NCBI RefSeq assembly: GCF_963921235.1
Contig: NC_086097.1
Span: 109,370,001 to 109,434,000 of the forward strand
Direction of reading: 5' to 3'
Length of the DNA: 64,000 nt
Source of the DNA: Mobula hypostoma
Lineage: Eukaryota
Shown here: positions 11,233 through 45,944 of the stretch, piece after piece
How the letters are laid out: each line of letters starts with the position of its first letter
How positions within the stretch are numbered: the first letter of the stretch is position 1
Made by a program: the position numbers and the translations under genes
The notes under the pieces: model-generated
Database searches by the model: none
Seen by the model: only the letters and a program-made list of their open reading frames with translations
What the model was told of the DNA's origin: nothing

Positions 11233-12541
11233 AAATAGTACAGATGATAAATGAAGTGTGGCCCTCTTGTAGCCAACCTGCTTTGGCCAACTTGCTCCCT
11301 ATCAGCTGCTAAGGATCTTATTTGCCATCTTATTATATCCTGCAAGAAAATAAGATGCATATCAAAGTTCGAACAATAAGTAATTTTACAGTTGCGCATG
11401 TTATTGTAGAGTAGTGTTACTGATGTCAGATGTTCAAGTTCAAGTTTATTGTCATGTGATTCTACTTAAATACAACCAAACAAAACAATGTTCTTCCAGA
11501 CCATGATCCACCCAGAAAGCATATCACACACACAGAAAATAAACTAAAATATTACCACAAATAAATTCACAAAATATAACTCCAAATGCTTGCAGTGTCC
11601 AGCAGAGGTAAACAGCAAACAGCTCATTGTCCTAGTGACAAGACCTCGGTGATGGCAGGGTATTCATTAGTTTCCCAGCCTGAGGGAAGAAGCTGTTACC
11701 CAGTCTGGCAGTCCTAGTCCTGAGGCTCCTGTGCCTCCTTCCTGACTGTAGAGGGACAAAGAGATTGACGGATAGGTGGTCAACACTGCTTTGGGCCCTT
11801 CGTATGCAATGCTCCTGGTAATTGTCACAAATGGGGAGGGAGGCCCCGGTGATTCTCTGGGTGGTTTTTCCTATCCTCTGTAGGGTCTTGCAGTCTGCTC
11901 CTTTGCAGCTTCAGTATCACACAATGATGCAGTCAGACAGGGCACTCTCGATTGTTCTCCTGTAGAAAGTTGTTAGATTGGGGTGGGAGAGTCTTGCACA
12001 TCTCAGTCTCCTCAGATAGTGTAGATGCTGCTGTGTTTTCTTGACTACTGAGGAGGTGCTGTAGAGTCCAGGCTAGATCATCTGTTATGTGCAATTCACT
12101 CAATCCACAGCAGAGCCATCGATGTGCAATGGAGATTGTCAACCTGTGCCTTCCAGAAGTCCACAATCCTCTCTTTTGTCTTGTCCATGATGAGACTCAG
12201 ATTGCTGTTCTTGCACCAGTAGACAAGCCTCTCTACCTCCACTTGTATACCGACTCATTGTTGTTTCAGGTAAGGCTGACGTATCATTGACGTATCATTA
12301 GCGAACATGATTATCCGGTTTGAGCTGGATCTGGCAGTGCAGTCGTGAGTCAGCGATGTGAACAGCAGCAGGCTGAGCATGCAGCCCTGGAGAAGGGGTA
12401 CGAGTGCTCAGCATGATGGAGCTAGAGATGTTGCTGCCAACTCAAACTGACTAGGGTCTTTCTGTCAGGAAGGCCAAGATAGAGTTCCAGAGAGGGTACT
12501 GACTCCCAACCAAAACGGCTTACCCACTAGCCTGTGAGGGA

Positions 12542-14623
12542 CGAGGGAGATGTCCTCCTTTTTTAAAGAGAGGGGCTTCCCTTCCTCCACTATCAATTCT
12601 GCTCTCAAACGCATCTCCCCCATTTCACGTACATCTGCTCTAGCTCCATCCTCCCGCCACCCCACTAGGAATAGGGTTCCCCTGGTCCTCACCTACCACC
12701 CCACCAGCCTCCAGGTCCAACATATTATTCTCCGTAACTTCCGCCACCTCCAACGGGATCCCACCACTAAGCAGATCTTTCCCTCCCCCCCCCCCGCTTT
12801 CCGCAGGGATCACTCCCTACACGACTCCCTTGTCCATTCGTCCCCCCCATCCCTCCCCACTGATCTCCCTTCTGGCACTTATCCTTGTAAGTGGAACAAG
12901 TGCTACACATGCCCTTACACTTCCTCCCTTACCACCATTCAGGGCCCCAAACAGTCCTTCCAGGTGAGGTGACACTTCACCGGTGAGTCGACTGTGGTGA
13001 TATACTGCGTCCGGTGCTCCCGATGTGGACTTCTATATATTGGCGAGACCCAACGCAGACTGGGAGACCGCTTTGCTGAACACCTACGCTCTGTCTGCCA
13101 GAGAAAGCAGGATCTCCCAGTGGCCACACATTTTAATTCCACATCCCATTCCCATTCTGATATGTCTATCCACGGCCTCCTCTACTGTAAAGATGAAGCC
13201 ACACTCAGGTTGGAGGAACAACACCTTATATTCCGTCTGGGTAGCCTCTAACCTGATGGCATGAACATCGACTTCTCTAACTACCGCTAGTGCCCCACCT
13301 CCCCCTCGTACCCCATCTGTTATTTATTTTTATACACACATTCTTTCTCTCGCTCTCCTTTTTCTCCCTCTGTCCCTTTGGCTGTGCCTATTGCCCATCC
13401 TCTGGGTTCCCACCCCACCTTGTCTTTCTCCCTGGGCCTCCTGTCCCATGATCCTCTCGTGCCCCCTTTGCTGGTCATCTGTCCAGCTCTTGGCTCCATC
13501 TCTCCCCCTCCTGTCTTCTCCTGTCATTTTGTATCTCCTCCTCCTCCTCCCACTTTCAGGTCTCTTGCTGGCTCTTCCTTCAGTTGGTCCTGACGAAGGG
13601 TTTCGGCCTGAGGCGTCGGCTGTGCCTCTTCCTGGAGATGCTGCCTGGCCTGCTGCGTTTCCAGCATCTGCAGAATTCCTGTTGTTTGAAATCTGTGGAT
13701 GCTGGAGTTTCGGGCAGCACACATGAAGGTTGCTGGTGAGCACAGCGGGCTGGGCTGTGTCTCTGGGAGGGGGTGGAGTTGACGTTTTGGGCCGAGACCC
13801 TTTGTTGGGACTGGCTGGGGGGGGGAGAGCTGGTGGGAGGTTTGGGGGTGGGAGGGGGAGGGGGAGATCTGAACTGGTGGGGGAAGCGGGAGGGGGAGGG
13901 ATGGGGCCGGGAGCTGGACGGTTGATTGGCGGGGGGGGGGATGTGGGGGGGATCATGGGACGGGAGGCCTAGGGAGGGGGAAGAGGGGGAGAAGGGGATA
14001 AGCCCGGGGGATGGGTGGGGGGTGTGGTGGGAGGGACGGAGGGAGAGAGAGAGAAAAAAATGTGTGTATATAAATAAATAATGGATGGGGTACTTCCACG
14101 TCCCATTCCCATTCTGATATGTCTATCCACGGCCTCCTCTACTGTCAAGTTGAAGGAACAGCACCTTATATTCCGTCTGGGTAGCCTCCAACCTGATGGC
14201 ATGAACATCGACTTCTCTAACTTCCGCTAATGCCCCACCTCCCCCTCGTACCTCATCCGTTGTTTAGTTTTATGCACACATTCTTTTTTCTCTCTCTCTC
14301 CTTTTTCTCTCTCTGTCCCTCTCACTATACCCCTTGCCCATCTTCTGGTTTCCCCCCCCACCTTTTCTTTCTCCCTGGGTCTCCTGTCCCATGATCCTCT
14401 CGTATCCCTTTTGCCTATCACCTGTCCAGCTCTTGGCTTCATCCCTCCCCCTCCTGTCTTCTCCTATCATTTTGCATCTCCCCCTCCCCCTCCCACTTTT
14501 AAATCCCTTACTCACTCTTCCTTCAGTTAGTCCTGACGAGGGGTCTCGGCCTGAAACGTCGACTGCACCTCTTCCTAGAGATGCTGCCTGGCCTGCTGCA
14601 TTCACCAGCAACTTTGATGTGTG
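12542..14623 (+). mobile_element. Neptune-like PLE, 5'-truncated composite: forward 12542-13688, inverted 13689-14093, forward 14094-14623
   Basis: Cys-rich linker CKWNKCYTCPY and GIY-YIG nuclease VIYCVRCSRCGLLYIGETQRRLGDRFAEHLRSV, with two premature stops. Flanked by TSD tagcctgtgaggga (12528-12541 and 14624-14637). Confidence 0.92.
14529..14565 (+). ncRNA. Minimal type I hammerhead ribozyme in PLE terminal repeat
   Basis: agtc-CTGACGA-ggggtctcggcct-GAAA-c-GTC-gact: stem I agtc/gact, intact core, ACGT palindrome at stem III. Confidence 0.8.
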
Positions 14624-14927
14624 TAGCCTGTGAGGGATGATCGTTTAAATGCTGAGCTGAAGTTGATGAACAACATCCTGGCGTATGAGGCATTGTTTCC
14701 TCGGTGGGACAGGATGGAGTGGAGGGCTGAAGCTATGGCATCATCAGTGGACCTGTTTGAGTGGTAGGTGAAATGGAAAGAGTCCAATGTGGCTGGAAGG
14801 TGGCATTTTATATGATTCATTACCAGCTGCTCAAAGCACTTCATGATTGATGAGCTCAGTGCCACTGGGTGGTAATTGTTTAGGCCAGTTACTGTCAGTC
14901 CCTTGGGCACTGGAATGACGGTGGCTA

Positions 14928-43628: not shown

Positions 43629-43821
43629 TATACAGGTTTGCCTCCCTTGTCAGGAAAAATGTTATACCATAAGAATATTAAATTCTTCACAGTGATTAAA
43701 TCTTTAGGCCTGAGAATGGGACAATTTAATATTTAGTATGTTGTGTAAATATAGTAGTTGTATTATATTTCAAAGTTGCTGGTGAACGCAGCAGGCCAGG
43801 CAGCATCTATAGGAAGAAGCG

Positions 43822-43858
43822 CAGTCGACGTTTCAGGCCGAGACCCTTCGTCAGGACT
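43822..43858 (-). ncRNA. Minimal type I hammerhead ribozyme (inverted pLTR copy)
   Basis: Reverse complement reads agtc-CTGACGA-agggtctcggcct-GAAA-c-GTC-gactg. Confidence 0.82.
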
Positions 43859-44550
43859 AACTGAAGGAAGAGTGAGTAAGGGATTTGAAAGCTGGAGGGG
43901 GAGGGGGAGATGCAAAATGATAGGAGAAGACAGGAGGGGGAGGGATGGAGCCGAGAGCTGGACAGGTGATAGGCAGAAGGGGATACGAGAGGATCATGGG
44001 ACAGGAGGTCCGGGAAGAAAGACGGGGGGGGGGTGACCCAGAGGATGGGCAAGAGGTATATTCAGAGGGACAGAGGGAGAAAAAGGAGAGTGAGAGAAAG
44101 AATGTGTGCATTAAAAAGAGTAACAGATGGGGTACGAGGGGGAGGTGGGGCCTAGCGGAAGTTAGAGAAGTCAATGTTCATGCCATCAGGTTGGAGGCTA
44201 CCCATACGGAATATAAGGTGTTGTTCCTCCAACCTGAGTGTGGCTTCATCTTTACAGTAGAGGAGGCCGTGGATAGACATGTCAGAATGGGAATGGGATG
44301 TGGAATTAAAATGTGTGGCCACTGGGAGATCCTGCTTTCTCTGGCGGACAGAGCGTAGATGTTCAGCAAAGCGGTCTCCCAGTCTGCGTCGGGTCTCACC
44401 AATATATAAAAGGCCACATCGGGAGCACCGGACGCAGTATATCACCCCAGTCGACTCACAGGTGAAGTGATGCCTCACCTGGAAGGACTGTTTGGGGCCC
44501 TGAATGGTGGTAAGGGAGGAAGTGTAAGGGCATGTGTAGCACTTGTTCCG

Positions 44551-45428: not shown

Positions 45429-45720
45429 GCCCCACCTCCCCCTCGTACCCCATCTGTTACTCTTTTTAATGCACACATTCTTTCTCTCACTCTCCTTTTT
45501 CTCCATTTGTCCCTCTGAATATACCTCTTGCCCATCCTCTGGGTCACCCCCCCCCGTCTTTCTTCCCGGACCTCCTGTCCCATGATCCTCTCGTATCCCC
45601 TTCTGCCTATCACCTGTCCAGCTCTCGGCTCCATCCCTCCCCCTCCTGTCTTCTCCTATCATTTTGCATCTCCCCCTCCCCCTCCAGCTTTCAAATCCCT
45701 TACTCACTCTTCCTTCAGTT

Positions 45721-45757
45721 AGTCCTGACGAAGGGTCTCGGCCTGAAACGTCGACTG
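45721..45757 (+). ncRNA. Minimal type I hammerhead ribozyme
   Basis: agtc-CTGACGA-agggtctcggcct-GAAA-c-GTC-gactg. Confidence 0.82.
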
Positions 45758-45944
45758 CTCTTCTTCCTATAGATGCTGCCTGGCCTGCTGCGTTCACCAG
45801 CAACTTTGATGTGTGTTGCTTGAATTTCCAGCATCTGCAGAATTCCTGTTGTTAGTTGTATTATATTGTATACTATGTATATATACACACACACACACAT
45901 GATGAGATGCATTCTATATAGATTTGGAGTTTATAGATAATGTG

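Follow-up and report, generated by a model that had tools for sequence, protein, structure and literature searches.

We analyzed a 64,000-nt stretch of the 3.48-Gb genome of Mobula hypostoma (NC_086097.1; G000:C1:109370001-109434000), hereafter called the window, which contains a 2.08-kb, three-part composite of a Penelope-like element (PLE). Two adjoining and mutually complementary arms of this composite both carry dense A-to-G changes on the + strand of the DNA. The core reading of this pattern, that double-stranded PLE RNA underwent A-to-I hyperediting, was read as G by reverse transcriptase (RT) and became fixed in the germ line, is well supported by the sequence comparisons described below. 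These comparisons show how the insertion is built, that the spectrum is one-directional and limited to the pairable region, and that there is a neighbor bias, together with hallmarks of retro-insertion and recurrence at other loci; we infer from them which enzyme acted, that RNA was its substrate and when it acted. More specifically, we propose, with a probability of roughly 0.78, that an ADAR-type enzyme deaminated an RNA duplex formed by the two arms, that the PLE RT fixed the result in the germ line and that the composite was inserted as a whole in a single event. RNA of the sense arm and RNA of the antisense arm would have paired over ~330 bp, before or during the integration event, and the deaminase would have turned ~37% of the adenosines of the sense arm and ~45% of those of the antisense arm into inosine. 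The PLE RT would then have read inosine as G, resulting in A>G on the + strand in both arms, and the CpGs created by editing would later have partly decayed to TG. The original prediction for this DNA had also proposed ADAR-type editing of PLE double-stranded RNA (dsRNA), followed by reverse transcription and germ-line integration, and it was borne out in this respect: the changes are one-directional and limited to the part that can pair, A after a 5' G is avoided, and the insertion is flanked by a target-site duplication (TSD).

Substitution pattern and pairing of the two arms

The composite lies between two exact copies of TAGCCTGTGAGGGA, at 12529-12542 and 14625-14638, which represent the TSD. 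We use the names LEFT, RIGHT and copy 3 for the three pieces of the composite that bear the 3' region of the element, and L-numbers for other genomic loci. LEFT (13308-13688, + strand) is the pLTR-like sense 3' terminal region of copy 1, the remainder of which is a remnant of the open reading frame (ORF). RIGHT (13689-14093, - strand) is an inverted 3' terminal region, which is antisense on the + strand and runs from the 3' end of the element to element position ~155 (GTACCCC). Copy 3 (14094-14623, + strand) consists of the ORF end and the sense 3' region. Sequence reading and a repeat finder placed RIGHT directly next to LEFT as its reverse complement and copy 3 directly after RIGHT. The layout claimed earlier, a TSD-flanked insertion in which a PLE tail is followed by its own reverse complement, was thus found, with a TSD of 14 bp.

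The substitution spectra were determined with two references. The first was the majority state of 60 ordinary family copies from the same genome, which were aligned with LEFT, reverse-complemented RIGHT and copy 3. The second was L011 (G000:C40:74693354-74696766, reverse strand, 1493-2464), which consists of an unedited inverted arm and a direct copy with the exact inner junction of RIGHT and copy 3 (14093/14094 in the window) and has its own 13-bp TSD, TTTCAATCCATGA. Compared with the 60 copies, LEFT exhibited A>G at 18 of 49 A, T>C at 5 of 131 T and 12 C>T, and RIGHT, when read in element sense, exhibited T>C at 59 of 128 T, which corresponds to A>G on the + strand, with an A>G count of 0/50. 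The 60 copies themselves had 0 to 6 A>G (median, 1) and 0 to 10 T>C. Compared with L011, RIGHT had 84 substitutions in total: A>G accounted for 65 (of 143 A), C>T for 8 and G>A for 3, and 8 were of other types. The dense + strand A-to-G change that had been predicted for both arms was therefore confirmed (18/49 in LEFT and 65/143 in RIGHT, against 3 G>A), and the spectrum was not symmetric but one-directional, with a bias in the 5' neighbor. L011 had also been considered as the direct parent of RIGHT and copy 3, which is unsupported by substitution distance, and it serves here as an unedited reference with the same junction.

The sequences on both sides of the arms were ordinary, as had been claimed. 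The ORF part at 12543-13307, compared with 9 family copies, had A>G at 3 of 155 A and 27 changes in 756 sites. Against L011, the adjoining 534 nt of copy 3 had 12 T>C, 9 C>T and A>G at 6 of 85 A, and against the 60 copies, copy 3 had A>G at 4/50. The A>G rates of RIGHT and copy 3 differed with a Fisher p of 1.7e-10. The edits extended from 13381 to 13634 in LEFT and from 13697 to 14053 in RIGHT, and the flanks of the edited zone in LEFT were unedited (10 A at 13310-13340 and 6 A at 13636-13675). The claim that the A-rich base of the stem is unedited also held: the AT-rich stem base (14046-14093, + strand) was nearly unedited when A>G was counted against L011, with 4 of 27 A changed in 14038-14087 and 1 of 9 in 14088-14137. 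The same part was also spared in three of the arms described in the next section (L003, L002 and L034).

The pairing of the arms was analyzed by position. LEFT and RIGHT pair with 248 Watson-Crick, 96 G.T, 8 A.C and 18 transversion-type positions, and an excess of G.T over A.C in a hairpin indicates A>G on the same DNA strand in both arms. Among seven unedited inverted pairs used as controls, G.T and A.C were roughly balanced in six, and the seventh (L021; G000:C40:79523250-79526658) had 25 G.T and 16 A.C. The inverted arm of L021 (531-915) exhibits moderately raised T>C (16 of 54 changes), and this locus may be a weakly edited or older case. Among 21 sampled loci with tail-to-tail PLE junctions, the skew was present at the window only, with 86 G.T and 4 A.C. 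The predicted RNA fold of the + strand had an energy of -597 kcal/mol and 90 G-U pairs, and that of the - strand had -386 kcal/mol and 3 G-U pairs. The edited zones of LEFT and RIGHT coincide along the stem.

The edits converted CA to CG at 15 sites, 5 of which are now TG, compared with C>T at 3 of 33 other C. This agrees with the earlier suggestion that the CA-to-TG changes arose by CA>CG and subsequent CpG decay, and the partial decay of the edit-made CpGs indicates that the edits are old germ-line DNA changes. With respect to independent reads, the repeat family dominated the Logan contigs of the public runs X1, X2, X5 and X8, and X1 and X2 are possibly from the assembled sample. A 151-letter contig of X1 covers 13876-14023 and a 79-letter contig of X2 covers 13361-13439, both with zero differences, and no alternative letter was listed across 13335-14208. 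Reads with A at the edited sites, which would contradict the assembly, were not found among the contigs covering 13361-13439 and 13876-14023.

Edited antisense arms at other loci and sequence context

Genome searches were conducted with RIGHT and then with one of its matches, each scoring 40 candidates, and the resulting sample of edited arms is biased by the queries. Among the searched candidates, five further hypermutated arms were found, all of antisense (purine-rich) polarity. T>C in element sense was found at 69 of 127 T in the arm of L003 (G000:C21:176646548-176649918, 1501-1874), 47 of 130 in L002 (G000:C2:49430088-49433450, 1500-1866), 68 of 117 in L031 (G000:C68:36715632-36718942, 1479-1818), 68 of 126 in L034 (G000:C21:100193930-100197290, 1520-1861) and 45 of 78 in L035 (G000:C80:32625010-32628225, 1446-1733), and sense A>G numbered 0 or 1 in each of these arms. 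A search with LEFT revealed no other sense-edited copy among 40 matches, although this was a weak search, in that only ~18 sites would differ.

The edits of two of these arms could be read directly against unedited paralogs. Compared with its paralog at G000:C66:52315900-52320050 (L078-L080), the 340-nt arm of L031 had 64 T>C among 114 T and one other change, so that 64 of 65 differences were of the edit type. Outside this arm, the two copies differed by ~1-2%, with 8 changes in the cis arm (343 nt) and 15 in the upstream part (1375 nt). This retrocopy is ~2.97 kb in length, with the PLE 3' end as one limit of the homology and the other limit 2.97 kb from it, and it is flanked by a 15-nt repeat. 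The 288-nt arm of L035, compared with its paralog at G000:C36:112764200-112765800 (L082), had 52 A>G among 95 A and one other change (52 of 53 differences of the edit type), whereas its flank and its cis arm had 2 changes in 501 nt and 9 changes in 365 nt, respectively. No TSD was evident by eye at L003 or L035. In L031 and L035, the edited strand is the RNA strand, in which the upstream sequence is followed by the antisense arm and then by the sense arm, whose 3' end would prime. The edited strand corresponds to the RNA strand that a PLE 3' end would prime, which supports editing of the retrocopy at the RNA stage.

The edited sites followed a neighbor rule, in which A after U or A is favored and A after G is avoided. 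In LEFT, the edited fraction by 5' neighbor was 9/15 for T, 5/7 for A, 3/18 for C and 1/9 for G. In RIGHT, compared with L011, it was 24/49 for A, 15/21 for C, 10/18 for T and 16/55 for G (G versus the rest, p = 0.002). When the six antisense arms were pooled, the fractions were 0.85 for U, 0.80 for A, 0.51 for C and 0.34 for G (chi-square p = 6e-23), and those by 3' neighbor were 0.65 for A, 0.56 for G, 0.45 for U and 0.40 for C, G being above the pyrimidines and below A. For the interval 13549-13640, the counts given in the original prediction were reproduced for the total (11 of 20 A changed) and for 5' T (5/5) and A (5/6), whereas those for C and G were 0/4 and 1/5 here instead of 0/3 and 1/6. 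Depletion of upstream G is a feature of the ADAR motif (PMC4365171, excerpt), and avoidance of 5' G is common to this published motif and the PLE arms. Exons for the A_deamin domain (PF02137) were found at at least seven loci of the same genome.

Form of the duplex and competing explanations

We regard LEFT and RIGHT as the strands of one edited duplex because the only sense-edited arm found adjoins an edited antisense arm and because their edited zones coincide. The chances are evenly balanced that this duplex was a single fold-back transcript from a three-part parent locus. LEFT would have been transcribed first and RIGHT would have paired with it at once, copy 3 staying single-stranded, and this order of events would account for the sparing of copy 3. 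Points in favor of a fold-back are the single TSD around the composite and the high frequency of tail-to-tail PLE junctions: the pattern consisting of TCCRGCRTCTGCRG, 0-60 nt and CTGYRGRTGCTGGR had 112 forward and 118 reverse matches genome-wide and 0 in the reversed control. Several forms of the tail-to-tail junction recur at many loci, suggesting that some tail-to-tail composites are themselves dispersed. On the other hand, the window was the only locus edited among the 21 sampled tail-to-tail loci, and no other locus with its LEFT|RIGHT junction was found, as one of three pattern matches in the assembly was the window itself and the other two were other junctions, leaving no parent. Furthermore, the subfamily markers differ among LEFT, RIGHT and copy 3, and ~30 nt close to the turn are present in RIGHT and missing from LEFT. 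With the junction unique in the assembly, the markers differing and lone edited antisense arms present elsewhere, the single fold-back transcript of the original prediction is not shown. Snap-back copying of one arm off the other was also considered and is ruled out by the differing subfamily markers and the ~30-nt length difference.

A serious alternative to the fold-back, which we hold tentatively, is that the duplex consisted of two RNAs, an RNA of RIGHT and copy 3 being paired in trans with an ordinary PLE RNA, and that it was copied strand after strand. On arriving at the 5' end of the first RNA, RT would have switched to the paired partner and continued from the 3' end of that partner. 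Such a template jump would explain the end-to-end junction at the canonical 3' end, and this version would align the window with the lone-arm loci. We also consider it possible, if rather doubtful, that antisense terminal repeats in read-through RNAs, which end in the sense PLE 3' end, are hyperedited while paired with a partner not in cis, and that the window records an RT jump onto the partner strand. Candidates for this partner are free sense PLE RNA and, in an R-loop, the DNA template.

Several observations weigh against the proposed editing of a LEFT/RIGHT duplex or its attribution to ADAR, in addition to the absence of a parent locus, the differing markers and the shorter LEFT mentioned above. 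At L003, L031 and L035, the edited antisense arm stands head-to-head with an unedited cis arm (A>G of 1/50, 1/39 and 1/46, respectively), so that both strands are edited at the window and one strand is edited at these three loci, which means that RIGHT could have been edited without LEFT. L031 also has 5 edits in 41 nt that have no complement in cis, and these edits, together with the unedited cis arms, indicate that antisense arms can be edited with a partner other than the neighboring arm. At the foot of the window stem, ~40 AT-rich bp are unedited despite favorable neighbors. The 3' neighbor pattern fits only loosely with the downstream G enrichment published for the ADAR motif. Counted in substitutions, other copies are at least as close to RIGHT as L011, which has 25 differences in 245 non-T columns. 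The read support consists of two short contigs, which are possibly from the assembled sample, and the evidence was read from DNA throughout.

As an explanation other than the editing of dsRNA, deamination could have occurred in an RNA:DNA hybrid or in DNA, either by ADAR in the purine-rich nascent RNA of an R-loop or in the cDNA strand of an RT intermediate, or by a DNA process in place on the extruded hairpin; we consider this improbable. ADAR2 does act on both strands of RNA:DNA hybrids, deaminating A in either strand ~20 times more slowly than in dsRNA, and it does not act in dsDNA (PMC5389660). Three observations would suit a hybrid: editing of lone arms invariably affects the purine-rich strand, the cis partners of these arms remain unedited, and the AT-rich part is spared. 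RNA:DNA hybrids are most stable when the RNA strand is purine-rich. However, the pyrimidine-rich LEFT is edited too, and the limits of the edits track complementarity to the PLE 3' region and not purine content. Moreover, the edited strand of L031 and L035 is of the RNA sense of the retrocopy, whereas editing of cDNA would give the opposite polarity. To our knowledge, there is no vertebrate DNA adenine deaminase.

Very improbable is a history of two events, in which the edited RIGHT was inserted together with copy 3 and the TSD, and the edited copy 1 with LEFT was later inserted at the outer end of RIGHT. The PLE endonuclease would have guided the second insertion by recognizing PLE tails, and the tail is reportedly necessary for recognition by the endonuclease (PMC11167929, excerpt). 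It would be in line with this history that lone edited antisense arms with unedited partners exist, that tail-to-tail junctions are as common as the pattern matches indicate and that the LEFT|RIGHT junction is unique to the window locus. It is nevertheless unlikely that a rare sense-edited copy landed by chance beside a rare antisense-edited arm; none of the 60 ordinary copies exceeded 6 A>G, and the 40 matches of LEFT were all 88-89% identical, without an outlier. The coincidence of the edited zones along the stem also speaks against separate editing of the two arms.

It is scarcely likely that the G-rich arm is an inherited variant, namely a small subfamily, rather than a product of independent editing. 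Edited sites were shared above chance between RIGHT and L003 (46 versus 31.5 expected) and between RIGHT and L002 (36 versus 21.8 expected), and a 3-nt length change in a C run is common to RIGHT and L002. We read this sharing as hot spots and not as descent because the edited arms differ from one another both in their nearest unedited relative and in their junction. A strong neighbor rule predicts the sharing of sites, and the shared length change is located in a homopolymer made by editing. In addition, there is a separate near-identical unedited paralog for each of L031 and L035, and in the RIGHT search just 2 of 39 matches besides the window stood out; the common dispersed G-rich subfamily that would argue against editing was not found.

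Error-prone reverse transcription or an imbalanced nucleotide pool during copying is hardly credible. The copying of retroelements is error-prone, and we can only infer that G placed opposite T in a single pass of + strand synthesis would give A>G in both arms. In contrast, within single retrocopies of 2-3 kb the changes end abruptly with the arm (65 in 340 nt beside 15 in 1375 nt at L031, and 53 in 288 nt beside 2 in 501 nt at L035), the ORF part and copy 3 of the window are ordinary, and the neighbor rule matches ADAR. An assembly or base-calling artefact at the inverted repeat deserves equally little credence: sequencing is difficult in long inverted repeats and runs of G, and the independent read support is thin, but the two short public-run contigs match the edited arms exactly without alternative letters listed, five further loci on other contigs show this pattern as well, the edit-made CpGs have decayed and the neighbor rule is biological.

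Comparison with known systems and further features of the insertion

A>G hyperediting fixed by reverse transcription has already been described in avian retroviruses, the reports of ADAR-linked cases including those on RAV-1 (Felder et al. 1994) and avian leukosis virus (Hajjar and Linial 1995) (PMC8586724, excerpt). These cases share with the present one clustered A>G changes that are attributed to ADAR and made permanent by reverse transcription. They differ in that they concern exogenous retroviruses in culture or in infected birds, whereas we describe a PLE in the germ line of a cartilaginous fish, in an old insertion that has kept both strands of the duplex as well as the TSD. What differs here is the element class and the host, the presence of both duplex strands in one insertion, the unedited paralogs and the one-sided editing of antisense arms. 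The avian leukosis virus case studied by Hajjar and Linial in 1995 reportedly involved an inverted duplication, and Knisbacher and Levanon in 2015, to go by the title, are said to have described edited mammalian retrotransposon RNA that re-enters the genome. A literature search found no report of DNA-fixed ADAR hyperediting for PLEs, fishes or cartilaginous fishes. An excerpt of a 2016 review states that the role of ADAR editing in Alu evolution had "not yet been determined" (PMC4982230). Inverted Alu pairs and similar structures resemble the window in forming a long intramolecular dsRNA with many A>G on both arms and a depletion of upstream G (PMC4365171, excerpt), but the edits there are in RNA only and those here are in DNA, and the related PLE loci are edited in one arm.

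The form of the insertion also has counterparts among PLEs. Direct and inverted terminal repeats inside one TSD, with an optional tail of 30-40 nt, are an ordinary form of PLE insertion, and the targets preferred are AT-rich simple sequences (PMC3846280, excerpt); the repeats inside one TSD, with the optional tail, are also present at the window. For a PLE protein studied in vitro, cleavage and extension have been described for both target strands, and there are two RT start sites (PMC11167929, excerpt). The window resembles insertions with inverted, head-to-head pLTRs in having the GIY-YIG ORF end and both direct and inverted repeats within one TSD, and it differs from them in the added tail-to-tail pair, a rarer form there (PMC3846280, excerpt), and in the hyperediting. 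The family has two 3' end forms, GATGTGTGT and a form ~40 nt longer. LEFT has the long form (...CTGCAGAATTCCTGTTGTTTG) and copy 3 has the short form (GATGTGTGT), which match the two RT start sites and the 30-40-nt tail described for PLEs (PMC11167929 and PMC3846280, excerpts). The excerpts of PMC3846280 and PMC11167929 do not mention editing, and that of PMC3846280 leaves open whether PLEs use an antisense template.

ADAR editing has almost always been studied in RNA, and permanent DNA copies of hyperedited molecules are rare. The window locus preserves both strands of an edited duplex, and the unedited paralogs at related loci allow the edits to be read without a consensus. Taken together, these loci are a natural archive of the sites chosen by ADAR in a ray germ line. 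The loci also appear to show that PLEs reverse transcribe composite RNAs with an antisense terminal repeat. The unedited cis arms were unexpected, and they make the pairing partner and the timing of editing testable. If antisense repeats in read-through RNAs were in fact edited with a partner that is not in cis, these fossils would record germ-line RNA pairing that is otherwise invisible, and they would be direct proof that antisense-pLTR RNAs serve as PLE templates, the point left open in the excerpt of PMC3846280. Editing could furthermore abruptly diversify and disable the ends of retroelements, a possible example being the hammerhead-like core of LEFT, in which GAAAC has become GAGGC, although Rfam recognizes no hammerhead here. 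The CTGACGA...GAAAC motif is intact in copy 3 (14533-14557), and its counterpart in LEFT (13590-13614) ends in GAGGC (13610-13614); editing thus seems to have struck the conserved core of this motif. The Rfam search gave no hammerhead at E values up to 1. RIGHT, L011, L003 and L034 share an inner end at element position ~155 (GTACCCC), and a hammerhead as the cause of this recurrent end was dropped, with no Rfam hammerhead found.

With respect to the remaining features of the composite, family homology begins at ~12540, within the left TSD copy, the ends being loose, and the right TSD copy is an exact match to the left one. Copy 1 (12543-13307, + strand) is a 5'-truncated, unedited remnant of the PLE ORF, as determined by Pfam and family comparison, and the truncation falls within the ORF end. 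A 92-aa stretch at 12973-13248 matched the GIY-YIG domain (PF01541) with an E value of 6.2e-5 and 23.7 bits, the cut-off being 22.6. An in-frame stop is present at 12970-12972, and Pfam gave no match for the 144-aa stretch upstream. The hairpin turn (13677-13688, + strand) comprises ~12 nt of the LEFT 3' end that have no partner in RIGHT, according to the sequence and the alignment of the arm ends. Copy 3 is unedited and has a private 17-nt deletion in the alignment of family copies.

Another inverted pair of the same PLE 3' region is located in the window at 43770-44135 (- strand) and 45445-45815 (+ strand), and it is not hyperedited. Its arms are ~97% alike, with 361 matches, 5 G.T and 6 transversions, and each is 37-40 sites off the family majority, a pattern that points to a common template or a recent inverted duplication.

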